From assembly GCA_046563655.1 (NCBI GenBank), contig CM102283.1, positions 4,774,001 to 4,838,000 of the forward strand: a stretch of 64,000 bases of DNA, read 5' to 3'. The DNA comes from Yuukianura sp. NJ FZ-2021 (Eukaryota). Shown piece by piece: positions 823 through 62,000 of the stretch; within the stretch, counting starts at the first letter, position 1; each line of letters begins with the position of its first letter. The notes under the pieces were generated by a model, which was given only the letters and a program-made list of their open reading frames with translations, was not told where the DNA came from and did not search any database. Both the position numbers and the translations under genes were made by a program.

Positions 823-879
823 CGTCGGTTACGTTCAACGTATAATAATACGTTGAACGTATATATAACGTAAGTGACG

Positions 880-24667: not shown

Positions 24668-24767
24668 NNNNNNNNNNNNNNNNNNNNNNNNNNNNNNNNN
24701 NNNNNNNNNNNNNNNNNNNNNNNNNNNNNNNNNNNNNNNNNNNNNNNNNNNNNNNNNNNNNNNNNNN
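24668..24767. other. Assembly gap (100 N)
   Basis: Run of N; coding sequence on the left does not resume on the right. Confidence 1.
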
Positions 24768-26945: not shown

Positions 26946-26957
26946 TTACAACGTTAC

Positions 26958-33608: not shown

Positions 33609-33836
33609 CAAGGTTTCTATAGCAACGGAATAGTTGTTGCTTCATAAGGTTAAGCAATACCTCGGTTTTTATATTTTTCCTTCCAAAATTGCAAAAATGA
33701 AAAAACATCACGGCAAGACATTCACTCTGATTCACTCTGGGTGAAACGTGGGTGAAAAAAAAGTTTGGAGCGAGATTTTTGGAAAACAAGACTTATTGCT
33801 TAACCTTATGAAGCAACCGTTGCTATAGAAACCTTG
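33609..33836. mobile_element. 228-bp hAT/P-type MITE, copy 3
   Basis: Appears identical to copy 2; same TSD and orientation. Confidence 0.95.
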
Positions 33837-36650: not shown

Positions 36651-36755
36651 TATCCTTCAAATAGAAGGTAAAGCTATATTTGAACAGCCATAATCTCTGT
36701 CCCAAAATAGGTTAGCACACATTTTGTGTTCATACCCTCTAACCTATAAAACACA

Positions 36756-39700: not shown

Positions 39701-41108
39701 AATGTTGAATGCTGCCCAGAAGGAAGCTTATGATGCGATTTTATTGGCAGAAAATGCTGACACGTACAGCAAATGTTTTTTTATTGATGGCCCTGGAGGA
39801 AGTGGTAAAACCTTCCTCTATAATACTCTTGATAAAACTTTTCAAGGTAGAGGCTTAAAAACATGCTTAGTAGCGTCAACTGGATTGGCAGCCACACTAC
39901 TGGAAGCTGGAACGACGTACCATTCCAGATTTGGACTTGGAATCCATACAAATGAGACTACAACGTCTAAAATAAAGCCAACATCTAAAGAGGCAAAGCT
40001 TCTTCGCGAAGCTTCAATTATTATTTGGGACGAAGTCACAATGACTCCATGCTACAACATGGACGCCGTGGACCGTCTTTTTAGAGAAATAATGGGAATT
40101 AATAAACCATTTGGGAATAAGTTATTCCTAATTGGGGGAGATTTTAGACAAACACTCCCAATTGTAAAGCATGGTAAACGTGCCCAAATTGTTCAAGCCT
40201 CGCTTAAAAGAAGCAAAGTTTGGAAGTTTTTCAAACCCCTTAAGCTTCTCGAAAATATGCGTACAGGCCCGGCAGAAATTGCATACAATGAATGGCTCCT
40301 TGATCTAGGGGATGGAAAATTATCCAATGAATACAATTTGGGAGAAGACTTAATTGAACTCCCAACCGATTGTATCGAGGAAAATGATTTAATTTCTTCC
40401 ATTTTTGGCGAAAAGGTTTCGCTGGATGAAGAAAATGTAAAAGCTTTGGCCAAAAAAGCTATATTAACGCCAAAGAACGAACATGTTCATCAACTAAATG
40501 AACAAATATTAAACCGCTGTGACGGCCAAGAAGTCGCTTATTTCAGCACTGATTCTGTCGATGACGACGGAGAAGGTTCGGCAGAGGACTATCCTGTCGA
40601 GTTTATCAACACCCTGACACCATCTGGGTTTCCACTTCATCACCTAAAGCTCAAAGTTGGAGCAATAATTATGCTTCTGCGTAATTTGAATAAAAGGCGC
40701 GGCCTATGTAACGGCACACGACTGATTATTAAGTCGCTAAAACCAAATGTAATTTGTGCAGAGATCCTGCAAGGCAGGCACGAAGGACAGCAAGTCCTTT
40801 TACCTAGAATTGACTTGGTTTCCTCCGAAAGTGACTTTTCAGTTGAAATTCGGAGACGCCAGTTTCCAGTGGCCTTGGCTTTCGTTATGAGCATTAACAA
40901 AGCCCAAGGACAGTCACTGGATTCTGTTGGTATTTACTTGCCATTTCCAGTGTTCAGCCACGGTCAATTATACGTAGCATTCTCTAGGTGCACCAAACAA
41001 GAAAAAGTACGGGTAAAATTGATTTCCCGAGAAAATCAAGGAAAATTGGTGCCTGGAGTAAATAAATGGTTTACAGTTAACTGTGTTTACAAAGAAATCT
41101 TTGCGTAA
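36756..41108 (+). CDS. Helitron RepHel transposase (Zn finger, HUH Rep endonuclease, PIF1-family helicase), 1450 aa, intronless
   Basis: CGHC..CCEHG; Rep motifs PDLFVTMTCNPKW, VIEFQKRGLPHCH, KYLYKYIYKG; helicase motifs GPGGSGKT, IIWDE, GGDFRQTLP, QFPV..INKAQGQS, FSHGQLYVAFSR. Confidence 0.98.
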   Translation: MSGRKRELSMTPEAIRKRLARARETEQETIRRRQSCAERQQVRRTLLSDEGQVGFDYSNIVDERTVVEYFVGSMTARCGHCNSKNFEGERSSTTKQFSSCCEHGKIILPNLKTNELISNLMKGDHELARNFVENIRSYNSALAFASMGAQIVPPPGYGPYCFRIHGQIYHLTGPLHPRQGEEPEYAQLYIIDAEEALTNRTNQNSNKGCNAALMNELDILMRNVNPFAQAYKMMREFELEEEELARQEGRVPHQISMSIVNDYSDDQRRYNAPRCNEVAVVFQNTLGEPPFNRDIRIHSRAENRTQPINFLHKKCDAMTYPLLFPYGDSGWTINLTVGKALSNQFQRLSIGEIEEPDNDDDNKQKISQLQYYAYRLAVRDEFNPILNAGKLTQQFIVDSYVKIEANRLNYIRMNQKALRVDSYAGLMDHVNNTAQNKGLKAGTAVILPSSFIGSPRAMAQNFQDAMTIVRKYGKPDLFVTMTCNPKWREITENLDPWQRAEFRPDLVARVFKLKLKELLNDILKKNIFGKVIAYVYVIEFQKRGLPHCHMLLILDEENKLKEPDSIDKVVSAEIPNPETHPRLHAIVMQNMIHGPCGQMNSSSICMNNGECSKKFPKGFVNETNPNQDGYPQYRRRDTGLEYKVGNHMINNAWVVPYNPFLLLKYNSHINVEVCASIKSVKYLYKYIYKGHDCANVRLDILTWDEPAQFVDSRYISAPEGVWRIRKYKMDDTSHVIKRLPVHLENMQQVYFEEGDEEGAFEEANLSSSMLQAYFELNKADTNAHGFLYSEIPENYTWDRKWHKWNPRKKAFGKTISRMYTVSVSQGELFYLRLLLLHVKGAHSFKDVRTVHGTVYDTFKEAAIALQLLSDDSQWESCILDAITYQMPYQLRDLFAMICVFGPPTDPKALWETYKEDFLEDYLKEHSPELAEQLGLRDLEETLNLHRKSCVEYNLPMPRDDLEDLLGGIDIQALASEAERLTEMLNAAQKEAYDAILLAENADTYSKCFFIDGPGGSGKTFLYNTLDKTFQGRGLKTCLVASTGLAATLLEAGTTYHSRFGLGIHTNETTTSKIKPTSKEAKLLREASIIIWDEVTMTPCYNMDAVDRLFREIMGINKPFGNKLFLIGGDFRQTLPIVKHGKRAQIVQASLKRSKVWKFFKPLKLLENMRTGPAEIAYNEWLLDLGDGKLSNEYNLGEDLIELPTDCIEENDLISSIFGEKVSLDEENVKALAKKAILTPKNEHVHQLNEQILNRCDGQEVAYFSTDSVDDDGEGSAEDYPVEFINTLTPSGFPLHHLKLKVGAIIMLLRNLNKRRGLCNGTRLIIKSLKPNVICAEILQGRHEGQQVLLPRIDLVSSESDFSVEIRRRQFPVALAFVMSINKAQGQSLDSVGIYLPFPVFSHGQLYVAFSRCTKQEKVRVKLISRENQGKLVPGVNKWFTVNCVYKEIFA

Positions 41109-44100
41109 AGCCCATAAAACGCAAAGATAAATAAACACAACTTTCAAAAATGACTCCCAAGTGAGAAAATGAGGGACTAACTCCTAGCCTCGGTCTACGG
41201 ACCAAACATTGGGCATGGGCAGGGCCTTGGGGGCAGATCCCAAGTGCGCTCAACCATGATTTTATTGTAAAGCTATCGCTTCTGGTATCATTATTTGCGA
41301 GGTTGGTTCATCAATCTGGCTACACTCGCAATACTCAAGCTATGAGCCCCGAGCGAAGCTCGGGGCCATGGCTTGTTTTAATTTAATGCTATGGAGACAG
41401 ACTACAAAAATAGGGACATTTGTCTGGTTTGAGGATCTTCAAGTGGTTTTTTGAAACCAGTGTTGTTGAAAATATTTTTCAACTAAGGTCTGATTGAATC
41501 CTGAGGAACGGAATTGTGCCAAGATAGCAATTTTAATTTGACGCTATGGAGACAGACTACAAAAATAGGGACATTTGTCTAGTTTGAGGATATTCAAGTG
41601 GTTTTTTGAAACCAGTGTTATTGTAAATATTTTTCAACTAAGGTCTGATTGAATCCTGAGGAACGGAATTGTGCCAAGATAGCAATTTTAATTTGACGCT
41701 ATGGAGACAGACTACAAAAATAGGGACATTTGTCTAGTTTGAGGATCTTCAAGTCGTTTTTTGAAACCAGTGTTGTTGAAAATATTTTTCAACTAAGGTC
41801 TGATTGAATCCTGAGGAACGGAATTGTACCAAGATAGCAATTTTAATTTGACGCTATGGAGACAGACTACAAAAATAGGGACATTTGTCTAGTTTGAGGA
41901 TCTTCAAGTGGTTTTTTGAAACCAGTGTTGTTGAAAATATTTTTCAACTAAGGTCTGATTGAATCCTGAGGAACGGAAATTGTGCCAAGATAGCAATTTT
42001 AATTTAATGCTATGGAGACAGACTACAAAAATAGGGACATTTGTCTGGTTTGAGGATCTTCAAGTGGTTTTTTGAAACCAGTGTTGTTGAAAATATTTTT
42101 CAACTAAGGTCTGATTGAATCCTGAGGAACGGAATTGTGCCAAGATAGCAATTTTAATTTGACGCTATGGAGACAGACTACAAAAATAGGGACATTTGTC
42201 TGGTTTGAGGACCTTCAAGTGGTTTTTTGAAACCAGTGTTGTTGAAAATATTTTTCAACTAAGGTCTGATTGAATCCTGAGGAACGGAATTGTGCCAAGA
42301 TAGCAATTTTAATTTGACGCTATGGAGACAGACTACAAAAATAGGGACATTTGTCTAGTTTGAGGATCTTCAAGTCGTTTTTTGAAACCAGTGTTGTTGA
42401 AAATATTTTTCAACTAAGGTCTGATTGAATCCTGAGGAACGGAATTGTACCAAGATAGCAATTTTAATTTGACGCTATGGAGACAGACTACAAAAATAGG
42501 GACATTTGTCTAGTTTGAGGATCTTCAAGTGGTTTTTTGAAACCAGTGTTGTTGAAAATATTTTTCAACTAAGGTCTGATTGAATCCTGAGGAACGAAAT
42601 TGTGCCAAGATAGCAATTTTAATTTAATGCTATGGAGACAGACTACAAAAATAGGGACATTTGTCTGGTTTGAGGATCTTCAAGTGGTTTTTTGAAACCA
42701 GTGTTGTTGAAAATATTTTTCAACTAAGGTCTGATTGAATCCTGAGGAACGGAATTGTGCCAAGATAGCAATTTTAATTTGACGCTATGGAGACAGACTA
42801 CAAAAATAGGGACATTTGTCTGGTTTGAGGACCTTCAAGTGGTTTTTTGAAACCAGTGTTGTTGAAAATATTTTTCAACTAAGGTCTGATTGAATCCTGA
42901 GGAACGGAATTGTGCCAAGATAGCAATTTTAATTTGACGCTATGGAGACAGACTACAAAAATAGGGACTTTTGTCTAGTTTGAGGATCTTCAAGTGGTTT
43001 TTCGAAACAACTGTTGTTGAAAATATTTTTCAACTAAGGTCTGATTGAATCCTGAGGAACGGAATTGTGCCAAGATAGCAATTTTAATTTGACGCTATGG
43101 AGACAGACTACAAAAATAGGGACATTTGTCTAGTTTGAGGATATTCAAGTGGTTTTTTGAAACCAGTGTTATTGTAAATATTTTTCAACTAAGGTCTGAT
43201 TGAATCCTGAGGAACGGAATTTTGCCAAGATAGCAATTTTAATTTGACGCTATGGAGACAGACTACAAAAATAGGGACATTTGTCTAGTTTGAGGATATT
43301 CAAGTGGTTTTTTGAAACCAGTGTTATTGTAAATATTTTTCAACTAAGGTCTGATTGAATCCTGAGGAACGGAATTGTGCCAAGATAGCAATTTTAATTT
43401 GACGCTATGGAGACAGACTACAAAAATAGGGACATTTGTCTAGTTTGAGGATATTCAAGTGGTTTTTTGAAACCAGTGTTATTGTAAATATTTTTCAACT
43501 AAGGTCTGATTGAATCCTGAGGAACGGAATTTTGCCAAGATAGCAATTTTAATTTGACGCTATGGAGACAGACTACAAAAATAGGGACATTTGTCTAGTT
43601 TGAGGATATTCAAGTGGTTTTTTGAAACCAGTGTTATTGTAAATATTTTTCAACTAAGGTCTGATTGAATCCTGAGGAACGGAATTGTGCCAAGATAGCA
43701 ATTTTAATTTGACGCTATGGAGACAGACTACAAAAATAGGGACATTTGTCTGGTTTGAGGACCTTCAAGTGGTTTTTTGAAACCAGTGTTGTTGAAAATA
43801 TTTTTCAACTAAGGTCTGATTGAATCCTGAGGAACGGAATTGTGCCAAGATAGCAATTTTAATTTGACGCTATGGAGACAGACTACAAAAATAGGGACAT
43901 TTGTCTAGTTTGAGGATCTTCAAGTCGTTTTTTGAAACCAGTGTTGTTGAAAATATTTTTCAACTAAGGTCTGATTGAATCCTGAGGAACGGAATTGTAC
44001 CAAGATAGCAATTTTAATTTGACGCTATGGAGACAGACTACAAAAATAGGGACATTTGTCTAGTTTGAGGATCTTCAAGTGGTTTTTTGAAACCAGTGTT

Positions 44101-45513
44101 GTTGAAAATATTTTTCAACTAAGGTCTGATTGAATCCTGAGGAACGAAATTGTGCCAAGATAGCAATTTTAATTTAATGCTATGGAGACAGACTACAAAA
44201 ATAGGGACATTTGTCTGGTTTGAGGATCTTCAAGTGGTTTTTGAAACCAGTGTTGTTGAAAATATTTTTCAACTAAGGTCTGATTGAATCCTGAGGAACG
44301 GAATTGTGCCAAGATAGCAATTTTAATTTGACGCTATGGAGACAGACTACAAAAATAGGGACATTTGTCTGGTTTGAGGACCTTCAAGTGGTTTTTTGAA
44401 ACCAGTGTTGTTGAAAATATTTTTCAACTAAGGTCTGATTGAATCCTGAGGAACGGAATTGTGCCAAGATAGCAATTTTAATTTGACGCTATGGAGACAG
44501 ACTACAAAAATAGGGACTTTTGTCTAGTTTGAGGATCTTCAAGTGGTTTTTCGAAACAACTGTTGTTGAAAATATTTTTCAACTAAGGTCTGATTGAATC
44601 CTGAGGAACGGAATTGTGCCAAGATAGCAATTTTAATTTGACGCTATGGAGACAGACTACAAAAATAGGGACATTTGTCTAGTTTGAGGATATTCAAGTG
44701 GTTTTTTGAAACCAGTGTTATTGTAAATATTTTTCAACTAAGGTCTGATTGAATCCTGAGGAACGGAATTTTGCCAAGATAGCAATTTTAATTTGACGCT
44801 ATGGAGACAGACTACAAAAATAGGGACATTTGTCTAGTTTGAGGATATTCAAGTGGTTTTTTGAAACCAGTGTTATTGTAAATATTTTTCAACTAAGGTC
44901 TGATTGAATCCTGAGGAACGGAATTGTGCCAAGATAGCAATTTTAATTTGACGCTATGGAGACAGACTACAAAAATAGGGACATTTGTCTAGTTTGAGGA
45001 TATTCAAGTGGTTTTTTGAAACCAGTGTTATTGTAAATATTTTTCAACTAAGGTCTGATTGAATCCTGAGGAACGGAATTTTGCCAAGATAGCAATTTTA
45101 ATTTGACGCTATGGAGACAGACTACAAAAATAGGGACATTTGTCTAGTTTGAGGATATTCAAGTGGTTTTTTGAAACCAGTGTTATTGTAAATATTTTTC
45201 AACTAAGGTCTGATTGAATCCTGAGGAACGGAATTGTGCCAAGATAGCAATTTTAATTTGACGCTATGGAGACAGACTACAAAAATAGGGACATTTGTCT
45301 AGTTTGAGGATATTCAAGTGGTTTTTCGAAACCAGTGTTGTTGAAAATATTTTTCAACTAAGGTCTGATTGAATCCTGAGGAACGGAATTGTGCCAAGAT
45401 AGCAATTTTAATTTGACGCTATGGAAACAGACTACAAAAATAGGGACATTTGTCTAGTTTGAGGATATTCAAGTGGTTTTTTGAAACCAGTGTTATTGTA
45501 AATATTTTTCAAC

Positions 45514-45905
45514 TGATTTGGATGGAAGGGCAAATCCTAACTTTCCGTAACGAGTTGAATGGAAATTGATGATGAATGAATGAAGAGATGAAGTGGAATT
45601 GGAGTGGAAACTGATTTGACTTGTAATTGCCAATACTTATTATTTTATTACTTAACTAAAAACAAGCAGTTACATTTTGACTCTGTGTAGTGTATGGAGT
45701 TGTTGCTTGTACTAAGGTTGAATCGCGACTCTTTTGTATGCTTGTGTTTTTCTTATGACTAAAAAAGATTCTACTTATGTTTTTGTATTTGAAAAGCTAA
45801 CCGACAAAAGCTACTATCTTTAGAATTTGAAAAGAAGAAGCGTCAGCGCGCTGTTTACCTAGAATTATTAAAATAAAAATAATTTCTGGCAGAACTGCCA
45901 GAACA
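45514..45905 (-). repeat. BEL/Pao 3' LTR (392 bp)
   Basis: Direct repeat of 52413-52807. Confidence 0.95.
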
Positions 45906-48900
45906 CCGGCGCCTCATTTGGGAACATAACCCAAATGCAATTAAAAATTGAAAAGAAAAACCATCTCAAAATTGAAGTTTTTTGGAAAGTGGTGGATTGA
46001 AGGGGATAGGTTGCAGCTTCTGGGTGACTTGAGAGGTGGACTAGGTCTCTCTCCAGGGAAGCGTACCTGGGAAAGTCTTTGCGAGACCCTCCACTGCAAC
46101 TTTCTCCGGGGTTTACAGAAAGAGATGTACTTCAATTCTGAGATAGTACTCTGAATGTTTAAAGTTGAATTACTCGCTCATGTGTTCTGTGTTCTACTCT
46201 CTACTCTAGAAAAATAAATAAAGTTAAATTAAGTTAAATTGGGGTAAATCTTACACTAAGTTGAATTGGAATAGGTTGAAATTATTAAAATACACTTATC
46301 CTAAGGACTTGCAGGTTCTTCAGTTTCTTCGGTTGGTTGTGGTTCAGGGAGAAGGGGACAGATCTTGACCACAGGTCTCTTCAAAGTGTGATCTCGAAAC
46401 TTGGTTAGTTGTCCCTCCTTAGGACCCTTCTTGACAAGTTGACTTGTACGAAAGTTGACCTCAACAGTTCGGATGAGACCGTCATGACCTGGGAACACTT
46501 GGGTGACTCTGGCCAATTTCCATTGCAGTGGAGTGACGTCATCATCTTTGATCAGGACCAATTCACCAACTTCGATGTTCTTCATAGGCTCCTTCCACTT
46601 TCGTCTCTCTTGTAATGAATGAATGTAGTCATCCTTCCACTTCTTCCAAAAATGCTCCAGAAGTATTTGGACTCTCTGCCATCTGGATGCTCTGTTTTCT
46701 TTGATATGGAGTAGGCTCGGCTCTGGAACGGAAGTGAGTGGCTTTCCGATTAAGAAGTGACCGGGTGTAAGAGCCTCGTAGCTGTCTGGGTCATTTGATA
46801 TGGCGAATAACGGGCGAGAATTTAGCACAGCTTCGACCATGGCGAGAATGGTATGGAATTCTTCGAGTGTGAGAACTTGTGATCCAACGGTTCTTCGCAA
46901 GTGATACTTCACACTTCGAACTCCAGCCTCCCATAGACCTCCCATGTGCGGAGCTTCAGGCGGATTGAACTTCCAGTCAATCCCTTGATTGGCTAAAAAC
47001 TGATGAATCTCATGATTAGAACCTTTAAGAAACTTTACCCACTCTGCTAACTCGTTTGCTCCGCCGACGAAGTTTGATCCGCAGTCGGAGCTGATGGTAA
47101 CTGGAAGACCACGTCTGGACACAAATCGTTTCAGTGCAGCGAGAAATGCATCAGTGGTCAGATCCGTTGCCGGCTCAAGATGGACTGCTTTGGTACTGAA
47201 GCAGATGAAAATGCAGAAGTAGACGGTGAACTGCTTTTTGCCTCTGCCTATTGTCTCTTGTGCTTTGAAAGGGCCAGCATAATCCAACCCTGTGTGTTCA
47301 AATGTAGATGATGGTGTTACCCTCTCCTTAGGTAAATTGCTCATCATCTGTTCGTATGTTTTGGCTCTCATCCTCTTGCATTTGACACACTGGTGAAGCT
47401 CACGTCGAATTGATGATCTGGCTCTTATGATCCAAAATTCACGTCTCAGATTGGCAAACATGTGTTGATAATTGGCGTGATGTAGGAGATGATGTCGATG
47501 GTGAATGATCAGCTTTGTAAATTGGTGTTTTCCAGATAAAATAATCTGGTGTTTCTCTTCTTCTGGCAGATTTGAGTGATGGAGTCTGCCTTTGATTCTG
47601 AGTACTCCTTTCTCGTCTAAAAATGGGGTTAAGCATGACAGTTGACTCCGTTTAGGTAACATTTTACCATTCTCGATTCGGCTGATCTCTTTGGCAAATT
47701 CTTCTCTCTGGCTGGCTCTGATGCATGTAGTAAAGGCGGAATCGATTTCTGCTACTGACAGTTCGCCTGTCCAGCGCTCCTCGGGCTGCAATTTCCTAGA
47801 ATTGTAGATAAAACGAAGAACATATGCCACAGCTCTCTTGAGCCGGACAAGGTTAGAGAAACGCTGGAAGAATGAAGTGTCAATTAACATGGAATTGATT
47901 ATGACCTTCTCAGTTTTCAATTCTAAATCAAAATCAATTGACTCTTTTGACTCAAAATTGGGTAACTCACGTTCTCGAAGGAAGTCTGGTCCTCTGAACC
48001 AAACCCCAGTGTTTACCAGTTCCTCAGCACTGATACCTCTGGTTCCAAGATCAGCGGGGTTGAGTTTACCAGGCACAAAGTTCCAACACTTTGCTGGCAG
48101 CACATCTTGAATTTCTGCAATTCTATTTGCAACAAAAGTTTTAAACTTACGTGAGGAGTTCCGCAGCCAGTGCAGAACAATCTCACTATCACTCCAGGTT
48201 GTGATTTGGCAGTTGAGATGTAAGGCTTCCGTGACTTGATTGATGAGCCTTGCCAGAAGTAACGCTCCACATAGCTCTAGTCTCGGTATGCTGATTTGTT
48301 TTAGTGGGGCTACCTTCGTCTTAGATGCGATGAGATTAGTTGAGACACAGTCTCCTCTGATGCAACGGACATAAACGACTGCACAATATGCCGTTTCAGC
48401 TCCGTCCGAGAAACCATGGATTTCCGTTAGTTCCGCTTTCTCTGTAAATAAAAATCTCGGAATTTTGATTAACTTTAAATGATCGATGCTCTTCTCGAAT
48501 TCGATCCATGGGCCTCTCAATTCAGGTGGAACTTCCTCGTCCCAACCCAGGAGGTGCTTAGTTCCATTTAGATCAATCGGAATCCACAGTTTCTGAAAAA
48601 AGATCTTAATAGACACAGTAAATGGAGCTAAGAAACCCAAGGGGTCGAAAACACGACTCATGGAAGATAAAATGGTCCGTTTCGTAGCTCTCTCAGTGGA
48701 TGACGGACTATATCCGGCAAAGTGAAAACTGTCACTTCCGGAATCCCAGCAGACACCCAAGGCACGTACTAAATTCGTTGATTCTGATTTTAAATTAGAG
48801 TTTTTGCCTTGTAACTCTCTCGGAATGAATTTGAGTGTCTCGATGTCGTTTGAATCCCACTGAGTGATTTCCAAACCTGCATTTTTTAGCAGATTGGTCA

Positions 48901-49843
48901 ACTCCTGGAAAATACGAATTGACTCTTGTGTAGATGTAGCTCCTCCCATGAGATCATCTACATAAAAGTTCTTCCGAAGGACCTCGGCACCTACAGGAAA
49001 AGACTGAGAAAAATCGTTAACAATTTGATGCAGACACCGAACTGCATGGAACGGTGCTGAACTCGTGCCGTAGGTGATGGTATTCAGTCGGAATTCTCGG
49101 ACTGGTTCTAGTTTCGATGTTCTCCACAAGATACGTTGGAAGTCTCGGTCGTTCTTGGACATCTCAAATTGCCTATACATCTTTGAAATGTCAGCTTTGA
49201 GAGCGATGGGATTTGACCTAAAACTCAAAAGATGAGAGAAAATATCGTTTTGTATAGTAGGACCTACCATCAAACACTGATTTAGGGAAAATCCAGATGA
49301 CGTTTTAGCTGATCCGTCAAACACCACTCTCAGCTTTGTAGTCTCGCTTGTCTCTTTTAGTACGAAGTGATGTGGCAAATAATTGGTTCGGCCAATTATC
49401 TCTCCACATTCTGAATCTGGGACTGGCTCCATATGTCCCAAATCTTCGTACTCTCTCATAAATCGATGGTACTCGGGTTTGAAATGAGGTAAGTGTTCCA
49501 GTCGCCGTTCCAAATTGTAGAATCTTCTCATTGCGATGGAACGAGACGCACCTAAAGGCTCATGATTAGTTTTGAATGGTAAACTCACTTGATATTTTCC
49601 AGTGGATGTTTTTGTTTGTGTCGAAACAAAATGTTCTTCACACTCTCTCTCCTCAGTTGTAAGAACTTGGCGTTTGGGTACCTCCTCGATCTCCCAGAAT
49701 TTTGAAATGTCATTCTCCTCAATCCGGACATGATTGACCTGTACAAACTTGGAAGGAAAATTAACAGGACCTGAAATTACCCAATGTGAGATTCATGGCT
49801 CACATAGCTTGAGAGACAAAGGATGATAGTGCAGAAAAAATAA

Positions 49844-49918
49844 GTGACCGAGTGGGATTCGAACCCACGTCTTTCTCCAATCCGGGGAGACTGCACTGCC
49901 CTTATGCTACCAGGCCAC
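49844..49918 (-). ncRNA. tRNA-like Pol III cassette in TRIM 3' LTR (not a canonical tRNA)
   Basis: Cloverleaf: GTGGCC/GGTCAC acceptor, GCAT/GTGC D stem, TCTCC-CCGGATT-GGAGA anticodon arm, GTGGG-TTCGAAT-CCCAC T arm; followed by TTATTTTTT. Confidence 0.8.
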
Positions 49919-50131
49919 AACTTGCACAGGATAGAGTAGGAAGGCTACCATCTAAGGCACTGTCCAATTCCCACACCTCTATCCTTGGCGGTTGGGAGTG
50001 GGACTGTTCCCAAACGCCACATCACCCGCCCCTCAAGCTCCCTCACGGCGCCGCCTGCCTCGGGGCACCAAATGTGAGATTCAGGGCTCACATAGCTTGA
50101 GAGACAAAGGATGATAGTGCAGAAAAAATAA

Positions 50132-50206
50132 GTGACCGAGTGGGATTCGAACCCACGTCTTTCTCCAATCCGGGGAGACTGCACTGCCCTTATGCTACCA
50201 GGCCAC
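50132..50206 (-). ncRNA. tRNA-like Pol III cassette in TRIM 5' LTR
   Basis: Identical to 49844-49918. Confidence 0.8.
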
Positions 50207-52412
50207 AACTTGCACAGGATAGAGTAGGAAGGCTACCATCTAAGGCACTGTCCAATTCCCACACCTCTATCCTTGGCGGTTGGGAGTGGGACTGTTCCCA
50301 AACGCCACACCAACCAAATTTGGTTTCCTCAGCCACGGGCATTGACGAAGAATACTCCAGTTTTCTCCCAGTTTTTAGAGAAGCCACAAATTCTGCCCCG
50401 ATGAGAATATCAATTTCTCCAGGCTCCAGAAATTGTGGATCTGCCAACATTAACTCTTTAATGTGTGGCCACTCTGTGGATTCACATTTGAAGGACGGTA
50501 TGGTACCTGTAATCCTAGGGAGAACTAGGGCATTAACATCAAGTGAATAATTAGTTATCCTTGAACTGACTGAAAATGTAGTTTCCCCCATAGCTTTACC
50601 AAGCTTGGTACCAGAGATCCCAGTGATGATTATGTTTGATTTGGTTTTGGTGAGTCCTAGTCTTCTCAAACATCGATCCGTAATCATGCTAGACTCGGAT
50701 CCCTGATCAAGAAGTACCCGACATGGTTGGAACTCACCAAGTGAGTCTCTGACGTCTACCACCGCGGTGGAGAGTAAGACTCTGGAAGAAGAAGAGTGAT
50801 TTGAAGTTATTGTTTGCGCCTGCGCAGTGATGTGCGAGGCCTCGACTCGTGATTCTCCGGATTTCTCGAAGTGCAGAGCAGTGTGGTGACGTTTGTTGCA
50901 CTTCTGACAATTGAATTTCCCCTTGCACTGCTTCTCTGAGTGGTTAGGTTTGAGACAATTGAAGCATAATTGTTTTGAACGGACGAACTTTACCCTCTCG
51001 TCCACCGACAAATTTAGGAATTGGTCACAGCGGTAAAGCCCATGTTCCATAGAGTCGCATGCGGGACATTTCCGTTGTGGTCGATTCGGATCTCTCGGTG
51101 GCTGTGATTGGCTCCATTGTGGTAATTGACTGACGGGCTGTGACTGACTCGAACTTGGTTGAGATTGATTTGATCGTTGTGGTTGTGTCACAGGCTGGGA
51201 TGAAACGTTTGACTTTTTCTCGTGCGCTTTGCTTCCTTCTGCTGCGGAAGGCTTGCTGGTGGCCGTAGAAGAAGCCAAAAGTCCCCGTAAGTAGTCCTCT
51301 AGGAATTCAATTGTTTCTGTGAATTTCGGAACTTCTGTCCCTTTCAGGGATTTAGCCCACTCCCTCTTGATTTCGGATGAAAGTCGCTCAATCAGATGGA
51401 ACACAAGTATAGAGTCCCAAGTGTTGACTGGTTCTTTGAGTGTAGCTAAGGACCTGAAAGACTCATTGAATGTGTCAATTAACTTCCTCAATTGTTGAGG
51501 ACTCTCACTACTCATCGCTTTGAAACTTAACAGTTTCCTCAGAATAGAAAACACAATCTCCCTCTTATTTTCATACCTCGATGTGATCAGTTTCCATGCC
51601 TCTTCGAAATTACCGTTAGTATTGTTGAAGTTTTTGATGATGTTCTCGGCCTCACCCTTTAATGTAGGTTTCAAGTAGCCGAGTTTCTCTCCTCCGGTCA
51701 GTTCACTGTTTTTGACGATGTAAGTAGTAATTAGATCTCTGTAGGAAAGCCAATCCTCGTATTTTCCGTCAAAAGTTGGAAGCTGCAGTTTTGGCAAGTT
51801 GACTTTCCGTTTGGTGCTGGAATTGCCGACTTCTGCTTCTACAGAGCTCAAGACAATGTTGATAGCATCAAGTAATTCATTGATCACGTTGAGCGCTGTA
51901 GCCTGTTCAGTGACTTCTTTTTCGTTACTGCATGCAGCGAAAATCTCCGAACTCAACTCGGCAAGTGTTGACTCGTACTTTTCTAGTTTCCTCCGATCAG
52001 CAGCAACAGCAGGAGCAGTAGCCTTGTCGGGATCCTGCTTATACTCTTTGATTTTGTTAAAAAGGAATTTGATGTTGACTTCTAACCCCTTGACTTGCAT
52101 CCTCAGACGGGACTTGACCTCTGGAGTCTGCGCCATGGCCGCCTTACTCGACGATGGAGCAGGTCTGTCTCTGGTAGCTGTTGGAATTTCAACTGTACTT
52201 GCAGTCGACTGGGTATCGTTTGTCTCCTCTGTCTCGTCTGATTGCGATTTCGTTTTGTTTTTACTCGCTGCTCGGGTTTCCATTTGCTAAGCACTCACAA
52301 CAACTCGCACGAATAGTTATAACACCCTTTAACTCATGTAAGTAGGGTCAATTGATATATTAACTTGATATGAAGTTACCAGATTACCAAGTTAAACTGT
52401 CTTTCGGCACCA

Positions 52413-52807
52413 TGATCTGGATGGAAGGGCAAATCCTAACTTTCGTAACGAGTTGAATTGAAAATGATGATGAATGAATGAAGAGATGAAGTGGAATTGG
52501 AGTGGAAACTGATTTGACTTGTAATTGCCAATACTTATTATTTTATTACTTAACTAAAAACAAGCAGTTACATTTTTTACTCTGTGTTGTTTGTATGGAG
52601 TTGTTGCTTGTAATAAGGTTGAATCGCGACTCTCTTGTATGCTTGTGTTTTTCTTATGACTAAGAAAAGACTCTATTTACGTTTTGTATGTGAAAAAGCT
52701 AACCGACAAAAGTTACTATTTTTAGAATTTGAAAAGAAGAAGCGTCAGCGCGCTTTTTACCTAGAATTATTAAAATAAAAATAATTTCTGGCAGAACTGC
52801 CAGAACA
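52413..52807 (-). repeat. BEL/Pao 5' LTR (395 bp)
   Basis: Direct repeat of 45514-45905, adjacent to the PBS. Confidence 0.95.
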
Positions 52808-55800
52808 TCAACTAAGGTCTGATTGAATCCTGAGGAACGGAATTGTGCCAAGATAGCAATTTTAATTTGACGCTATGGAGACAGACTACAAAAATAGGGA
52901 CATTTGTCTAGTTTGAGGATCTTCAAGTGGTTTTTGAAACCAGTGTTGTTGAAAATATTTTTCAACTAAGGTCTGATTGAATCCTGAGGAACGAAATTGT
53001 GCCAAGATAGCAATTTTAATTTAACGCTATGGAGACAGACTACAAAAATAGGGACATTTGTCTGGTTTGAGGATCTTCAAGTGGTTTTTTGAAACCAGTG
53101 TTGTTGAAAATATTTTTCAACTAAGGTCTGATTGAATCCTGAGGAACGGAATTGTGCCAAGATAGCAATTTTAATTTGACGCTATGGAGACAGACTACAA
53201 AAATAGGGACATTTGTCTGGTTTGAGGATCTTCAAGTGGTTTTTTGAAACCAGTGTTGTTGAAAATATTTTTCAACTAAGGTCTGATTGAATCCTGAGGA
53301 ACGGAATTGTGCCAAGATAGCAATTTTAATTTGACGCTATGGAGACAGACTACAAAAATAGGGACATTTGTCTAGTTTGAGGATATTCAAGTGGTTTTTT
53401 GAAACCAGTGTTATTGTAAATATTTTTCAACTAAGGTCTGATTGAATCCTGAGGAACGGAATTGTGCCAAGATGGCAATTTTAATTTGACGCTATGGAGA
53501 CAGACTACAAAAATAGGGACATTTGTCTAGTTTGAGGATATTCAAGTGGTTTTTTGAAACCAGTGTTATTGTAAATATTTTTCAACTAAGGTCTGATTGA
53601 ATCCTGAGGAACGGAATTGTGCCAAGATAGCAATTTTAATTTGACGCTATGGAGACAGACTACAAAAATAGGGACATTTGTCTAGTTTGAGGATATTCAA
53701 GTGGTTTTTCGAAACCAGTGTTGTTGAAAATATTTTTCAACTAAGGTCTGATTGAATCCTGAGGAACGGAATTGTGCCAAGATAGCAATTTTAATTTGAC
53801 GCTATGGAGACAGACTACAAAAATAGGGACATTTGTCTAGTTTGAGGATCTTCAAGTGGTTTTTCGAAACCAGTGTTGTTGAAAATATTTTTCAACTAAG
53901 TTCTGATTGAATCCTGAGGAACGGAATTGTACCAAGATAACAATTTTAATTTGACGCTATGGAGACAGACTACAAAAATAGGGACATTTGTCTGGTTTGA
54001 GGATCTTCAAGTGGTTTTTTGAAACCAGTGTTGTTGAAAATATTTTTCAACTAAGGTCTGATTGAATCCTGAGGAACGGAATTGTGCCAAGATAGCAATT
54101 TTAATTTGACGCTATGGAGACAGACTACAAAAATAGGGACTTTTGTCTAGTTTGAGGATCTTCAAGTGGTTTTTCGAAACAACTGTTGTTGAAAATATTT
54201 TTCAACTAAGGTCTGATTGAATCCTGAGGAACGGAATTGTGCCAAGATAGCAATTTTAATTTGACGCTATGCAGACAGACTACAAAAATAGGGACATTTG
54301 TCTAGTTTGAGGATATTCAAGTGGTTTTTTGAAACCAGTGTTATTGTAAATATTTTTCAACTAAGGTCTGATTGAATCCTGAGGAACGGAATTGTGCCAA
54401 GATAGCAATTTTAATTTGACGCTATGGAGACAGACTACAAAAATAGGGACATTTGTCTAGTTTGAGGATATTCAAGTGGTTTTTTGAAACCAGGGTTATT
54501 GTAAATATTTTTCAACTAAGGTCTGATTGAATCCTGAGGAACGGAATTGTGCCAAGATAGCAATTTTAATTTGACGCTATGGAGACAGACTACAAAAATA
54601 GGGACATTTGTCTAGTTTGAGGATATTCAAGTGGTTTTTTGAAACCAGTGTTGTTGAAAATATTTTTCAACTAAGGTCTGATTGAATCCTGAGGAACGGA
54701 ATTGTGCCAAGATAGCAATTTTAATTTGACGCTATGGAGACAGACTACAAAAGTAGGGACATTTGTCTAGTTTGAGGATATTCAAGTGGTTTTTTGAAAC
54801 CAGTGTTGTTGAAAATATTTTTCAACTAAGGTCTGATTGAATCCTGAGGAACGGAATTGTGCCAAGATAACAATTTTAATTTGACGCTATGGAGACAGAC
54901 TACAAAAATAGGGACATTTGTCTAGTTTGAGGATCTTCAAGTGGTTTTTCGAAACCAGTGTTGTTGAAAATATTTTTCAACTAAGGTCTGATTGAATCCT
55001 GAGGAACGGAATTGTACCAAGATAACAATTTTAATTTGACGCTATGGAGACAGACTACAAAAATAGGGACATTTGTCTAGTTTGAGGATCTTCAAGTGGT
55101 TTTTTGAAACCAGTGTTGTTGAAAATATTTTTCAACTAAGGTCTGATTGAATCCTGAGGAACGAAATTGTGCCAAGATAGCAATTTTAATTTAACGCTAT
55201 GGAGACAGACTACAAAAATAGGGACATTTGTCTGGTTTGAGGATCTTCAAGTGGTTTTTTGAAACCAGTGTTGTTGAAAATATTTTTCAACTAAGGTCTG
55301 ATTGAATCCTGAGGAACGGAATTGTACCAAGATAGCAATTTTAATTTGACGCTATGGAGACAGACTACAAAAATAGGGACATTTGTCTAGTTTGAGGATC
55401 TTCAAGTGGTTTTTTGAAACCAGTGTTGTTGAAAATATTTTTCAACTAAGGTCTGATTGAATCCTGAGGAACGAAATTGTGCCAAGATAGCAATTTTAAT
55501 TTAACGCTATGGAGACAGACTACAAAAATAGGAACATTTGTCTGGTTTGAGGATCTTCAAGTGGTTTTTTGAAACCAGTGTTGTTGAAAATATTTTTCAA
55601 CTAAGGTCTGATTGAATCCTGAGGAACGGAATTGTGCCAAGATAGCAATTTTAATTTGACGCTATGGAGACAGACTACAAAAATAGGGACATTTGTCTAG
55701 TTTGAGGATCTTCAAGTGGTTTATTGAAACCAGTGTTGTTGAAAATATTTTTCAACTAAGGTCTGATTGAATCCTGAGGAACGGAATTGCGCCAAGATAG

Positions 55801-56036
55801 CAATTATAATTTGACGCTATGGAAACAGACTACAAAAATAGGGACATTTATCTGGTTTGAGGATCTTCAAGTGGTTTTATGAAACCAGTGTTGTTGAAAA
55901 TATTTTTCAACTAAGGTCTGATTGAATCCTGAGGAACGGAATTGTGCCAAGATAGCAATTTTAATTTGACGCTATGGAGACAGACTACAAAAATAGGGAC
56001 ATTTGTCTGGTTTGAGGATCTTCAAGTGGTTTTTTA

Positions 56037-59000
56037 GGTTTTTTACCTGATTTTTGTACGGTTTTTTGAAACCAGTGTATGTAAAATAAAATTTAAAGAA
56101 AAGTTTCACCTAACATCTGACCCCAGAATCATCGTTGAAAGGATATGAGACTTTTAATAAATTTTCAAATTTTACGCTATAGGGACACGCTATTTGCACA
56201 GAGGCATTTCTGTGGTTTCCTGATTTTTGTACGGTTTTTTGAAACCAGTGTATGTAAAATGAAATTTAAAGAACAGTTTCACCTAACATCTGACCCCAGA
56301 ATCATCGTTGAAAGGATATGAGATTTAATAAATTTTCAAATTTTACGCTATAGGGACACGCTAGTAACACAGGAGCATTTCTGTGGTTTCCTGATTTTTG
56401 TGCGGTTTTTTGAAACCAGTGTATGTAAAATAAAATTTAAAGAAAAGTTTCACCTAACATCTGACCCCAGAATCATCGTTGAAGGGATATGAGACCTTTA
56501 ATAAATTTTCAAATATTACGCTATAGGGACACGCTAGTAACACAGGAGCATTTCTGTGGTTTCCTGACTTTTGTACGGTTTTTTGAAACCAGTGTATGTA
56601 AAAAAAATTTAAAGAAAAGTTTCAATTAACATCTGACCCCAGAATCATCGTTGAAGGGATATAAGACCTTTAATAAATTTTCGAATTTCACGCTATAGAG
56701 ACACGCTATTTACACAGAGACATTTCTGTGGTTTCCTAATTTTTGTGCGGTTTTTTGAAACCAGTGTATGTAAAATAAAATTTAAAGAAAAGTTTCACCT
56801 AACATCTGACCCCAGAATCATCGTTGAAGGGATATGAGACTTTTAATAAATTTTCAAATTTTACGCTATAGGGACACGCTAGTTACACAGAGGCATTTCT
56901 GTGGTTTCCTGATTTTTGTACGGTTTTTTGAAACCAGTGTATGTAAAAAAAATTTAAAGAACAGTTTCACCTAACATCTGACCCCAGAATCATCGTTGAA
57001 AGGATATGAGACTTTTAATAAATTTTCAAATTTTACGCTATAGGGACACGCTAGTAACACAGGAGCATTTCTGTGGTTTCCTGATTTTTGTACGGTTTTT
57101 TGAAACCAGTGTATGTAAAAAAAATTTAAAGAAAAGTTTCACGTCACATCTGACCCCAGAATCATCGTTGAAGGGATATGAGACTTTTAATAAATTTTCA
57201 AATTTTACGCTATAGGGACACGCTAGTAACACAGGAGCATTTCTGTGGTTTCCTGATTTTTGTACGGTTTTTTGAAACCAGTGTATGTAAAATAAAATTT
57301 TTAGAAAAGTTTCACCTAACATCTGACCCCAGAATCATCGTTGAAAGGATATGAGACTTTTAATAAATTTTCAAATTTTACGCTATAGGGACACGCTATT
57401 TACACAGGAGCATTTCTGTGGTTTCCTGATTTTTGTACGGTTTTTTGAAACCAGTGTATGTAAAATAAAATTTAAAGAACAGTTTCACGTCACATCTGAC
57501 CCCAGAATCATCGTTGAAGGGATATGAGACTTTTAATAAATTTTCAAATTTTACGCTATAGGGACACGCTAGTTACACAGAGGCATTTCTGTGGTTTCCT
57601 GATTTTTATACGGTTTTTTGAAACCAGTGTATGTAAAAAAAATTTAAAGAACAGTTTCACCTAACATCTGACCCCAGAATCATCGTTGAAAGGATATGAG
57701 ACTTTTAATAAATTTTCAAATTTTACGCTATAGGGACACGCTAGTAACACAGGAGCATTTCTGTGGTTTCCTGATTTTTGTGCGGTTTTTTGAAACCAGT
57801 GTATGTAAAAAAATTTAAAGAAAAGTTTCACGTCACATCTGACCCCAGAATCATCGTTGAAGGGATATGAGACTTTTAATAAATTTTCAAATTTTACGCT
57901 ATAGGGACACGCTAGTAACACAGGAGCATTTCTGTGGTTTCCTGATTTTTGTACGGTTTTTTGAAACCAGTGTATGTAAAATAAAATTTAAAGAAAAGTT
58001 TCACCTAACATCTGACCCCAGAATCATCGTTGAAAGGATATGAGACTTTTAATAAATTTTCAAATTTTACGCTATAGGGACACGCTAGTTACACAGAGGC
58101 ATTTCTGTGGTTTCCTGATTTTTGTACGGTTTTTTGAAACCAGTGTATGTAAAAAAAATTTAAAGAACAGTTTCACGTCACATCTGACCCCAGAATCATC
58201 GTTGAAGGGATATGAGACTTTTAATAAATTTTCAAATTTTACGCTATAGGGACACGCTAGTAACACAGGAGCATTTCTGTGGTTTCCTGATTTTTGTACG
58301 GTTTTTTGAAACCAGTCTATGTAAAATAAAATTTAAAGAAAAGTTTCACCTAACATCTGACCCCAGAATCATCGTTGAAAGGATATGAGACTTTTAATAA
58401 ATTTTCAAATTTTACGCTATAGGGACACGCTATTTGCACAGAGGCATTTCTGTGGTTTCCTGATTTTTGTACGGTTTTTTGAAACCAGTGTATGTAAAAA
58501 AATTTAAAGAACAGTTTCACCTAACATCTGACCCCAGAATCATCGTTGAAAGGATATGAGACTTTTAATAAATTTTCAAATTTTACGCTATAGGGACACG
58601 CTAGTAACACAGGAGCATTTCTGTGGTTTCCTGATTTTTGTGCGGTTTTTTGAAACCAGTGTATGTAAAATAAAATTTAAAGAAAAGTTTCACCTAACAT
58701 CTGACCCCAGAATCATCGTTGAAGGGATATGAGACTTTTAATAAATTTTCAAATTTTACGCTATAGGGACACGCTATTTACACAGAGACATTTCTGTGGT
58801 TTCCTAATTTTTGTGCGGTTTTTTGAAACCAGTGTATGTAAAATAAAATTTAAAGAAAAGTTTCACCTAACATCTGACCCCAGAATCATCGTTGAAGGGA
58901 TATGAGACTTTTAATAAATTTTCAAATTTTGCGCTATAGGGACACGCTAGTAACACAGGAGCATTTCTGTGGTTTCCTGATTTTTGTACGGTTTTTTGAA

Positions 59001-62000
59001 ACCAGTGTATGTAAAAAAATTTAAAGAAAAGTTTCACGTCACATCTGACCCCAGAATCATCGTTGAAGAGATATGAGACTTTTAATAAATTTTCAAATTT
59101 TACGCTATAGGGACACGCTAGTAGTACAGGAGCATTTCTGTGGTTTCCTGATTTTTGTACGGTTTTTTGAAACCAGTGTATGTAAAAAGGAATTTAAAGA
59201 AAAGTTTCAATTAACATCTGACCCCAGAATCATCGTTGAAGGGATATAAGACCTTTAATAAATTTTCGAATTTCACGCTATAGAGACACGCTAATTACAC
59301 AGAAACATTTCTGTGGTTTCCTAATTTTTGTGCGGTTTTTTGAAACCAGTGTATGTAAAATGAAATTTAAAGAAAAGTTTCACCTAACATCTGACCCCAG
59401 AATCATCGTTGAAGGGATATGAGACTTTTAATAAATTTTCAAATTTTACGTTATAGGGACACGCTATTTGCACAGAGGCATTTCTGTGGTTTCCTGATTT
59501 TTGTACGGTTTTTTGAAACCAGTGTATGTAAAAAAAATTTAAAGAACAGTTTCACCTAACATCTGACCCCAGAATCATCGTTGAAAGGATATGAGACTTT
59601 TAATAAATTTTCAAATTTTACGCTATAGGGACACGCTAGTAACACAGGAGCATTTCTGTGGTTTCCTGATTTTTGTACGGTTTTTTGAAACCAGTGTATG
59701 TAAAAAAAATTTAAAGAACAGTTTTACCTAACATCTGACCCCAGAATCATCGTTGAAAGGATATGAGACTTTTAATAAATTTTCAAATTTTGCGCTATAG
59801 GGACACGCTAGTAATACAGGAGCATTTCTGTGGTTTCCTGATTTTTGTACGGTTTTTTGAAACCAGTGTATGTAAAAAAATTTAAAGAAAAGTTTCACGT
59901 CACATCTGACCCCAGAATCATCGTTGAAGGGATATGAGACTTTTAATAAATTTTCAAATTATACGCTATAGGGACACGCTAGTAACACAGGAGCATTTCT
60001 GTGGTTTCCTGATTTTTGTACGGTTTTTTGAAACCAGTGTATGTAAAATAAAATTTAAAGAAAAGTTTCACCTAACATCTGACCCCAGAATCATCGTTGA
60101 AGGGATATGAGACTTTTAATAAATTTTCAAATTTTACGCTATAGGGACACGCTAGGAACATAGGAGCATTTCTGTGGTTTCCTGATTTTTGTACGGTTTT
60201 TTGAAACCAGTGTATGTAAAATAAAATTTAAAGAAAAGTTTCACCTAACATCTGACCCCAGAATCATCGTTGAAAGGATATGAGACTTTTAATAAATTTT
60301 CAAATTTTACGCTATAGGGACACGCTATTTGCACAGAGGCATTTCTGTGGTTTCCTGATTTTTGTACGGTTTTTTGAAACCAGTGTATGTAAAAAAAATT
60401 TAAAGAACAGTTTCACCTAACATCTGACCCCAGAATCATCGTTGAAGGGATATGAGACTATTAATAAATTTTCAAATTTTACGCTATAGGGACACGCTAT
60501 TTACACAGAGACATTTCTGTGGTTTCCTAATTTTTGTGCGGTTTTTTGAAACCAGTGTATGTAAAATAAAATTTAAAGAAAAGTTTCACCTAACATCTGA
60601 CCCCAGAATCATCGTTGAAGGGATATGAGACTTTTAATAAATTTTCAAATTTTGCGCTATAGGGACACGCTAGTAACACAGGAGCATTTCTGTGGTTTCC
60701 TGATTTTTGTACGGTTTTTTGAAACCAGTGTATGTAAAAAAATTTAAAGAAAAGTTTCACGTCACATCTGACCCCAGAATCATCGTTGAAGAGATATGAG
60801 ACTTTTAATAAATTTTCAAATTTTACGCTATAGGGACACGCTAGTAGTACAGGAGCATTTCTGTGGTTTCCTGATTTTTGTACGGTTTTTTGAAACCAGT
60901 GTATGTAAAAAAATTTAAAGAAAAGTTTCAATTAACATCTGACCCCAGAATCATCGTTGAAGGGATATAAGACCTTTAATAAATTTTCGAATTTCACGCT
61001 ATAGAGACACGCTAATTACACAGAAACATTTCTGTGGTTTCCTAATTTTTGTGCGGTTTTTTGAAACCAGTGTATGTAAAATGAAATTTAAAGAAAAGTT
61101 TCACCTAACATCTGACCCCAGAATCATCGTTGAAGGGATATGAGACTTTTAATAAATTTTCAAATTTTGCGCTATAGGGACACGCTAGTAACACAGGAGC
61201 ATTTCTGTGGTTTCCTGATTTTTGTACGGTTTTTTGAAACCAGTGTATGTAAAAAAATTTAAAGAAAAGTTTCACCTAACATCTGACCCCAGAATCATCG
61301 TTGAAGGGATATGAGACCTTTAATAAATTTTCAAATTTTACGCTATAGGGACACGCTAGTAACACAGGAGCATTTCTGTGGTTTCCTGATTTTTGTACGG
61401 TTTTTTGAAACCAGTGTATGTAAAATAAAATTTTTAGAAAAGTTTCACCTAACATCTGACCCCAGAATCATCGTTGAAAGGATATGAGACTTTTAATAAA
61501 TTTTCAAATTTTACGCTATAGGGACACGCTAGTTACACAGAGGCATTTCTGTGGTTTCCTGATTTTTGTACGGTTTTTTGAAACCAGTGTATGTAAAAAA
61601 AATTTAAAGAACAGTTTCACGTCACATCTGACCCCAGAATCATCGTTGAAGGGATATGAGACTTTTAATAAATTTTCAAATTTTACGCTATAGGGACACG
61701 CTAGTAACACAGGAGCATTTCTGTGGTTTCCTGATTTTTGTACGGTTTTTTGAAACCAGTCTATGTAAAATAAAATTTAAAGAAAAGTTTCACCTAACAT
61801 CTGACCCCAGAATCATCGTTGAAAGGATATGAGACTTTTAATAAATTTTCAAATTTTACGCTATAGGGACACGCTATTTGCACAGAGGCATTTCTGTGGT
61901 TTCCTGATTTTTGTACGGTTTTTTGAAACCAGTGTATGTAAAAAAATTTAAAGAACAGTTTCACCTAACATCTGACCCCAGAATCATCGTTGAAAGGATA

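Follow-up and report, generated by a model that had tools for sequence, protein, structure and literature searches.

A 525-bp miniature retrotransposon, very probably of the Helenus type, with a tRNA-like unit in each long terminal repeat

What does a tRNA gene prediction mean when it occurs twice within half a kilobase of DNA, each time inside one of a pair of near-identical repeats? This question is raised by a 64,000-nucleotide stretch of contig CM102283.1 of Yuukianura sp. NJ FZ-2021 (assembly GCA_046563655.1, forward-strand positions 4,774,001 to 4,838,000), to which we refer in its entirety as the window and whose own numbering we use throughout. Over the full 64 kb ARAGORN calls just two tRNA genes, both of which fall within a 525-bp miniature element at 49785-50309, the sense strand of which is the minus strand. 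An initial annotation, made from the letters alone, had described this element as a non-autonomous miniature long terminal repeat (LTR) retrotransposon, each LTR of which bears a tRNA-like unit. Our follow-up upholds that description through the anatomy of the element (an LTR, a primer binding site or PBS, a polypurine tract or PPT, and a second LTR), its target site duplication (TSD), the cleanness of its insertion and the existence of sister copies. We consider it very probable that the element is a Helenus-type terminal-repeat retrotransposon in miniature (TRIM), of the group known as TRIMp3: a non-autonomous element with a degenerate tRNA-derived unit in each of its LTRs.

Helenus elements, as Kojima 2024 (PMC10886601) defines them, are TRIMs with a PBS and a PPT, in which the LTRs hold a sequence of tRNA origin whose A and B boxes are conserved. 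Because that definition names the same features that we find here, we regard the element as one of a published kind and not of a new kind, in an assignment that relies on shared features, the named Helenus families having been compared by description only. The name 'Helenus', which the initial annotation had offered, was thus well chosen. The element probably represents a new family in a new host lineage, extending the picture drawn in 2024 without changing it; our search of the literature on Helenus and TRIMp3 found no second primary description besides Kojima 2024.

The anatomy of the element leaves little room for doubt, and each structural detail given earlier (the overall length, the near-identical LTRs, the short interior and the duplicated flank) proved correct when re-read. 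The LTRs measure 237 bp each, start with TG and end with CA, and are identical at 236 of 237 positions (blastn of one against the other, E 5e-124; Tandem Repeats Finder (TRF) score 1048), the sole difference being that between 49796 and 50084. The interior (50022-50072) comprises 51 bp which, on the minus strand, read as TT (50071-50072), an 18-nt PBS starting TGGTGCCCCG (50053..50070, located by pattern search), a 6-nt linker and a 25-nt tract (50022..50046) with purines at 18 of its final 23 nt. This tract, the PPT, adjoins the 3' LTR and is retained in variant copies with other PBS modules. The minus strand therefore carries, in this order, the 5' LTR (50309..50073), the PBS, the PPT and the 3' LTR (49785..50021), which sets the sense of the element. 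The flanks, read from the sequence, are CCAA on the plus strand (TTGG on that of the element) both next to the 3' LTR (49781..49784) and next to the 5' LTR (50310..50313). They form a 4-bp TSD, a 5-bp reading of which fails; a match of this kind would arise between random 4-bp flanks with a chance of 1 in 256, and it is read here from one copy. There is no coding capacity, as the open reading frames (ORFs) of at least 80 aa over the element are only read-ins of the BEL frame that surrounds it or repeats of LTR frames. A PBS pattern search of the window with at most 2 mismatches returned only the element's own site, and blastn found no third LTR copy there, only chance words of 11-19 nt.

Each LTR holds one tRNA-like unit in the sense orientation, at 50131..50206 in the 5' LTR and at 49843..49918 in the 3' LTR (minus strand; ARAGORN, which calls both Ser(gga)). 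The Rfam tRNA model RF00005 scores 31.4 bits in both LTRs (at 50133-50204 and 49845-49916) against a gathering score of 29, and these are the only two Rfam matches at gathering threshold in the 64 kb. The promoter-like signals were found as they had been noted: an A-box-like sequence, TGGTAGCATAAGG, at 50200..50188 and 49912..49900; a B box, GGTTCGAATCC, that is a perfect consensus, at 50153..50143 and 49865..49855; and, 3-4 nt beyond the end of each unit, a run of six T (T6) at 50123..50128 and 49835..49840. The minimum free energy fold of the unit is a cloverleaf. The unit is, nevertheless, not a decoding tRNA, in line with the earlier remark that its loop lacks U33: position 33 of the anticodon loop, CCGGAUU, is a C, the acceptor stem has flaws (one mismatch and one deletion in the Rfam alignment), and the anticodon is of the serine type yet comes without a long variable arm. 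Such degenerate features, C33 and the weak acceptor stem among them, would plausibly spare the genomic RNA of the element from tRNA processing. As for other small RNAs, no 5S match was seen in 49000-51000 at E<=1 nor in the whole window at gathering score, and no ribozyme family is among the 3 Rfam matches in 49000-51000 at E<=1. One Rfam match, to 'Cyano-2', was dismissed as chance (15.4 bits against 40, E 0.59).

How did the element come to lie where it does? It interrupts a BEL/Pao LTR retrotransposon, itself no part of the TRIM, that occupies 45514..52807 on the minus strand between LTRs at 45514-45905 and 52413-52807. These host LTRs, of 392 and 395 bp, are 94.7% alike in a blastn self-comparison; the host element has a 5-bp TSD, GTTGA, verified against the consensus of a 155-bp satellite, and a PBS that starts TGGTGCCGAAAG. 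Pfam recognises DUF1759 and an aspartyl protease in the ORF upstream of the break, and Peptidase_A17, RVT_1, rve, Integrase_H2C2 and DUF5641 in the ORF downstream of it. The closest matches of the BEL pol are ENA/metagenome contigs with 51% identity, and the best named ones are from Folsomia candida (45%), Centruroides and Orchesella. Each half of the ORF was compared separately with four uninterrupted homologues of ~1,700 aa. In three of the four, the last upstream host codon (residue 659) and the first downstream one (residue 4) correspond to a single homologue residue (605/605, 589/589 and 585/585); in the fourth, likewise intact, the halves overlap by 4 residues (584/580). Subtracting the 525 bp and the 4-bp duplication brings the two frames into register. 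Because a single residue of the intact homologues marks the point where the halves meet, we take this to be a clean transposition, in which the target was neither lost nor rearranged, as would be expected of integrase-mediated insertion.

The locus also preserves the order of events. Since the BEL/Pao element sits in the 155-bp satellite with its GTTGA duplication, and the TRIM sits in the BEL/Pao element, the satellite came first, the BEL/Pao element second and the miniature element last. The insertion of the latter is recent, because its LTRs differ at one position in 237 bp (K = 0.0042), a single difference that carries a wide error; the 236/237 identity bears out the very recent activity proposed at the outset. 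Dating the BEL/Pao element is less straightforward. An alignment of its LTRs, 397 columns long, contains 14 substitutions and 7 gap positions, a substitution divergence of 3.6%, and the element's 1,819 host-encoded codons are in frame and contain no stops, where an analytic estimate predicts 4.85 new stops (P(0) = 0.008). As LTR divergence and stop-free coding disagree, the former may overstate the age of the BEL/Pao element, which leaves the nesting order unaffected.

Is the element alone, or one of many? We aligned contigs of four public sequencing runs to 49585-50092, a segment that reaches from the BEL flank across one LTR and the interior to 20 bp into the next LTR. Two of these are DNA runs (X1, which may derive from the sample behind the window's assembly, and X4 under another organism label) and two are RNA libraries from two studies (X3 and X6). 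In X1, summed word depth is ~112 over the BEL flank, ~800-7,800 over the interior and 3,400-59,000 over the LTR, so that LTR and interior reach 7 to >100 times the flank depth. A 94-nt X1 contig that runs over the PPT, the PBS and the start of the next LTR has 0 differences from the window copy at a depth of 780. The 160 X1 contigs divide into 54, 26, 59 and 21 with a likeness of >=99, 95-99, 90-95 and <90%, respectively, and the 38 contigs of X4 are mostly 90-95% alike. Among these 198 DNA contigs (X1 and X4 together), no canonical A- or B-box position has a variant at >=10%.

The layout of the element recurs beyond the window copy. From X3, a contig of 256 nt (record 9) runs from LTR through interior to LTR with the same Met-like interior as the window copy; from X6, one of 188 nt (record 19) repeats this layout, keeps the PPT and the LTRs (151 aligned bases with 5 differences) and has a different 27-nt module on the PBS side, which recurs as loose ends in X1 and X4. 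X1 yielded a third PBS-side module. Both LTR and interior are thus multi-copy, and their sequences describe an interspersed mobile family that keeps its layout in variant form. The initial annotation had named the lack of any other LTR-interior-LTR copies as grounds for abandoning its reading, and such copies exist among the public-run contigs. The flank-bearing DNA contigs offer a hint: X1 record 1 and X4 record 11 stop aligning exactly at 49784, and could mark BEL copies without the TRIM insertion.

Further contigs are of another kind. In many of them the likeness is confined to the T-arm/B-box part and the LTR's initial 30-50 bp, with depth peaks of 59,000 and 42,000; others join the T-arm/B-box to the LTR start, skipping 66-127 bp (positions 49835, 49865-49872 and 49986-49993). 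Immediately beyond the T-run, on the U5 side, the sequences of these partial-match contigs part ways, a pattern suggestive of several related LTR length variants, or of sister families, that would share a tRNA-like core and an LTR terminus. In public metagenome contigs, exact scans with 26-nt LTR-end and 28-nt T-arm/acceptor words found 0 loci, as did a scan of public viral contigs and genome contigs with a 25-nt word.

Several routes could lead such an element through a cycle of transcription and replication, and the one that we lean slightly towards is read-through by RNA polymerase III (Pol III). Neither TATA[AT]A nor A[AT]TAAA occurs on the sense strand, and nowhere on it do four or more T stand in a row except in the two T6 runs, each a candidate Pol III terminator. 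Our model follows that of Cassandra, as summarised in the introduction of Kojima 2024 (PMC10886601). In the unit of the 5' LTR, TFIIIC would bind both boxes, A and B, and Pol III would start near 50206. A minority of transcripts would pass the T6 at 50128-50123, which a genomic RNA must read through, and continue across U5 (~50 nt), the PBS, the PPT and U3 (~103 nt). The second T6, at 49840-49835 in the 3' LTR, would then mark the 3' end of the genomic RNA and the border of R and U5, giving an RNA of ~370 nt with an R of ~80 nt, namely the tRNA-like unit. An autonomous LTR element at another site in the genome would package this RNA; a cellular tRNA (the PBS here being Met-like) would prime its reverse transcription, with the usual two strand transfers, and an integrase that cuts with a 4-bp stagger would insert the product. 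If this is true, the passage of Pol III through the first T6 would parallel the way in which a retrovirus ignores the poly(A) signal at its 5' end.

A number of observations weigh against this picture, in whole or in part. The T6 ahead of the PBS is a strong Pol III stop, at which most transcripts begun in the 5' LTR would end after ~80 nt, of no use to retrotransposition. The 5' T6 is spanned by contigs of both RNA libraries (X3 record 9 and X6 record 19); they prove neither a single transcript, nor the polymerase, nor the RNA ends, and RNA libraries can contain DNA. The tRNA score lies just 2.4 bits over the cut-off, and the cloverleaf is of ordinary energy (z -0.70), with 44 of 200 shuffles folding as well. 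Variable sites are 1 of 76 in the tRNA-like part and 10 of 161 elsewhere, a difference that is not significant (Fisher p = 0.11). Within the window there is no second copy, and hence no independent TSD or solo LTR was seen there, nor does the window hold a partner: none of its autonomous elements matches the TRIM in LTR ends, PBS or PPT. In X3 and X6 the BEL flank at 49585-49771 has no cover and the TRIM is covered, a contrast that serves neither as a control for DNA carry-over nor as evidence of expression, because the copy numbers of the two differ. The ends of RNA contigs at ~49868/49869 and 49840 were considered as RNA ends and rejected, as the same points are branch points in the DNA run.

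Some of these points lend weight to a second account, in which the element is a TRIM driven by RNA polymerase II (Pol II) and its tRNA-like segment is carried along as a passenger, left behind by a SINE (short interspersed nuclear element) or a tRNA-derived sequence that had inserted into an ancestral LTR. The anatomy would still be that of Helenus, with a different mechanism. A T6 upstream of the PBS should, after all, halt Pol III short of a usable template, and a score of 31.4 against 29, variable sites that are not significantly depleted in the unit, and the statement in Kojima 2024 (PMC10886601) that the Pol III promoter function of Helenus has not been validated experimentally all fit a passenger. 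Such a passenger would, however, have kept a perfect consensus B box, and A- and B-box positions with no variant at >=10% in the DNA contigs, in an element with neither TATA box nor poly(A) signal on its sense strand. Moreover, Kojima 2024 (PMC10886601) describes the same arrangement as recurring in independent lineages. We judge the Pol II account unlikely, and continue to prefer Pol III read-through.

Which tRNA primes the element, and which autonomous element mobilises it? The initial annotation had matched the PBS to the 3' end of elongator tRNA-Met. This stands in part: the PBS of the window copy agrees with the human tRNA-Met PBS given in PMC1084362 at 15 of 18 positions, among them all of the first 10, the standard being a human reference PBS and not the tRNAs of the host. 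The second module matches the Drosophila tRNA-Phe complement (bioRxiv 699934) at 17 of 18 positions, and the third the human tRNA-Lys1,2 PBS (PMC1084362) at 15 of 18, with the first 12 exact. The sister copies seem, as far as their sequences tell, to swap one PBS module for another beside an LTR and a PPT that hardly change. As to the partner, the 4-bp TSD, together with the description of animal Helenus PBS regions in Kojima 2024 (PMC10886601) as resembling only Gypsy elements, points to a Gypsy-type element.

Could it instead be a BEL/Pao element, such as the one in which the TRIM resides? On this account the family, or its Phe-PBS subfamily, would be mobilised by BEL/Pao and not by Gypsy. 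Phe-type sister copies (X1, X4 and X6) indeed share the first 12 nt of their PBS with the host BEL/Pao element, including a G at position 12, unlike the Drosophila tRNA-Phe complement. A common primer tRNA is, however, no proof of partnership, as the use of tRNA-Phe by both would explain the match. The TSD of the BEL/Pao element is 5 bp (GTTGA) against 4 bp for the TRIM; beyond TG..CA their LTR termini share no similarity, and blastn with the TRIM LTR finds nothing in the BEL element; and the PBS of the window copy is Met-like, not Phe-like. A BEL/Pao partner thus strikes us as improbable, and a Gypsy-type partner is the one that the evidence favours.

Taken together, these strands allow a broader proposal, which we put forward tentatively, as possible and no more. 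One Helenus chassis, with LTRs ~97% alike and an identical PPT, would carry at least three exchangeable PBS modules (Met-, Phe- and Lys-like), and so switch its primer tRNA, and perhaps its partner, on a short time scale. A BEL/Pao element would be one possible partner, the element's own T6 would be read through, and all of this would take place in an arthropod lineage outside the parasitoid wasps.

Two further explanations fare far worse. The first holds that there is no LTR element here at all, and that a tRNA-derived SINE, or a tRNA pseudogene together with its flanks, has simply been duplicated in tandem at this locus. TRF does read a 288-bp period in 1.8 copies, and the window holds one copy only. 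Tandem duplication accounts poorly, though, for TG..CA ends, a PBS 2 nt past the first repeat, a purine tract adjoining the second, a 4-bp TSD and a BEL ORF split at a single residue. Sister copies, moreover, carry other tRNA-complementary words at the same spot (the 17/18 Phe and 15/18 Lys1,2 matches), and because every variant has such a word where a PBS is needed, a mere tandem SINE duplication is excluded for practical purposes. Equally hard to credit is the view that the LTRs carry working tRNA genes and that the element spreads functional tRNA copies, as the ARAGORN call of tRNA-Ser(GGA) and the few bivalve and fungal Helenus families that may encode plausible tRNAs (Kojima 2024, PMC10886601) have to be set against C33 in place of the near-universal U, a serine anticodon without a long variable arm, and an acceptor stem with a mismatch and a deletion in a unit of 31.4 bits.

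The surroundings of the BEL/Pao element are themselves rich in repeats. Tandem satellite makes up most of the window (1946-8220, 25582-35792, 41376-45514 and 52808-64000), in units of 157, 256, 398, 173 and 155 bp with 94-98% matches. The consensus units of the 155- and 173-bp satellites share a ~20-nt word, GGTTTTTTGAAACCAGTGT, and judging from this word the two may be related families. The 155-bp arrays are interrupted at ~29115-30576, 32132-32360 and 33608-33836. Between two 155-bp blocks lies an uninterrupted Helitron Rep/helicase ORF of 1,452 aa (36750-41108, plus strand; Helitron_like_N, PIF1 and Pif1_2B), with which the 155-bp satellite may be associated, or by which it may be carried. 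The best named matches of this Helitron are from Cordylochernes, Folsomia and Orchesella (~46-52%), mixed with reptile and amphibian matches. With the BEL pol matches, and with Arthropoda as the phylum most often listed in the Atlas, they suggest as the likely host an arthropod outside the annotated model species, although proteins of transposons are no decisive guide to taxon. A run of 100 N at 24668-24767 marks an assembly gap. A GC-rich patch at 20779-21945 (GC 0.505 over 20001-22000) contains a 17-bp G-rich tandem repeat at 21310-21487 with an inverted counterpart at 21806-21945, and lies inside and beside a 309-aa ORF without a Pfam match. Finally, a 176-aa ORF at 11701-12231 (plus strand) with weak C2H2 zinc-finger matches gives the only non-transposon protein signal among the scanned ORFs of at least 150 aa.

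The element has consequences for annotation. Helenus copies swell the count of predicted tRNA genes and spread Pol III promoter sites through genomes, and recognising them avoids false tRNA calls; both 'tRNA-Ser' calls of the window are artefacts of this type. The window copy is unusually clean, with one LTR difference, an intact TSD and an insertion point that can be dated against a host ORF. The family as a whole offers a convenient natural system in which to ask how an element passes its own terminator, how it chooses its primer and which autonomous elements it exploits.

Where, then, does it stand among known systems? With tRNA-derived SINEs (SINE2), which Kojima 2024 (PMC10886601) proposes as the likely source of the Helenus LTR unit, it shares a degenerate tRNA head with A and B boxes, a high copy number and its non-autonomous nature. 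SINEs, in contrast, lack LTRs, PBS and PPT and are moved by the target-primed reverse transcription of LINEs (long interspersed nuclear elements). The window element has the full set of LTR-type cis signals, including an LTR pair, a PBS and a PPT, and no run of four or more A on its sense strand. Retrozymes are likewise non-autonomous LTR elements with LTRs unlike those of autonomous elements (PMC10886601); they are distinguished by hammerhead ribozymes, none of which was matched at the window element (49000-51000, E<=1). The canonical TRIMs (TRIMp2), such as PbTRIM described from harvester ants in PMC3532108, have the same LTR-PBS-PPT-LTR structure, occur in arthropods and depend on an autonomous partner, and differ in having no small-RNA gene in the LTR.

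Closer relatives are found within TRIMp3, which in Kojima 2024 (PMC10886601) unites Helenus, Ajax and Cassandra. Ajax, a nemertean TRIM with a partial 5S promoter, shows the TRIMp3 architecture in an animal, and departs from the window element in that 5S promoter fragment, in its 5-bp TSDs and in its tRNA-Leu PBS (PMC10886601). Cassandra, too, bears a small-RNA gene of the Pol III type, with promoter and terminator, in each TRIM LTR, and its transcription starts in the unit of the 5' LTR and ends in that of the 3' LTR (introduction of Kojima 2024, PMC10886601). Its unit, however, is derived from 5S rRNA and not from tRNA, its hosts are plants, and its R region is 18 bp (PMC10886601) as against the ~80 nt that we propose here.

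It is to Helenus that the element comes closest, with some departures of its own. The arthropod hosts given in Kojima 2024 (PMC10886601) are chalcidoid and cynipid wasps only. PBS types in the main text of that paper are Lys, Leu, Trp and Arg in wasps, His, Leu and Lys in vertebrates, and Lys, His, Ile, Pro, Glu and Ser in bivalves; 'tRNA-Met' and 'tRNA-Phe' occur 0 times in the same main text, and the family of the window has Met- and Phe-like PBSs. Its A box reads TAGCA..AGG, compared with TRGCY..YGG in most families described there: box B GGTTC and the TRGC of box A are present, and the Y of TRGCY and the YGG are unmatched. The likeness, on the other hand, is extensive. Two short LTRs, each with a tRNA-like unit bearing A and B boxes, enclose only a PBS and a PPT and no ORF; the length of 525 bp falls within the 311-1263 bp reported for Helenus, and the TSD is 4 bp, as it is in animal families, those of fungi and plants having 5 bp (PMC10886601). 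Indeed, the tRNA-like parts of Helenus are described as mostly unable to encode a working tRNA and as showing no complementarity to the element's own PBS (PMC10886601), and the unit in the window matches on both counts, being unlikely to decode and not complementary to the PBS of the element.

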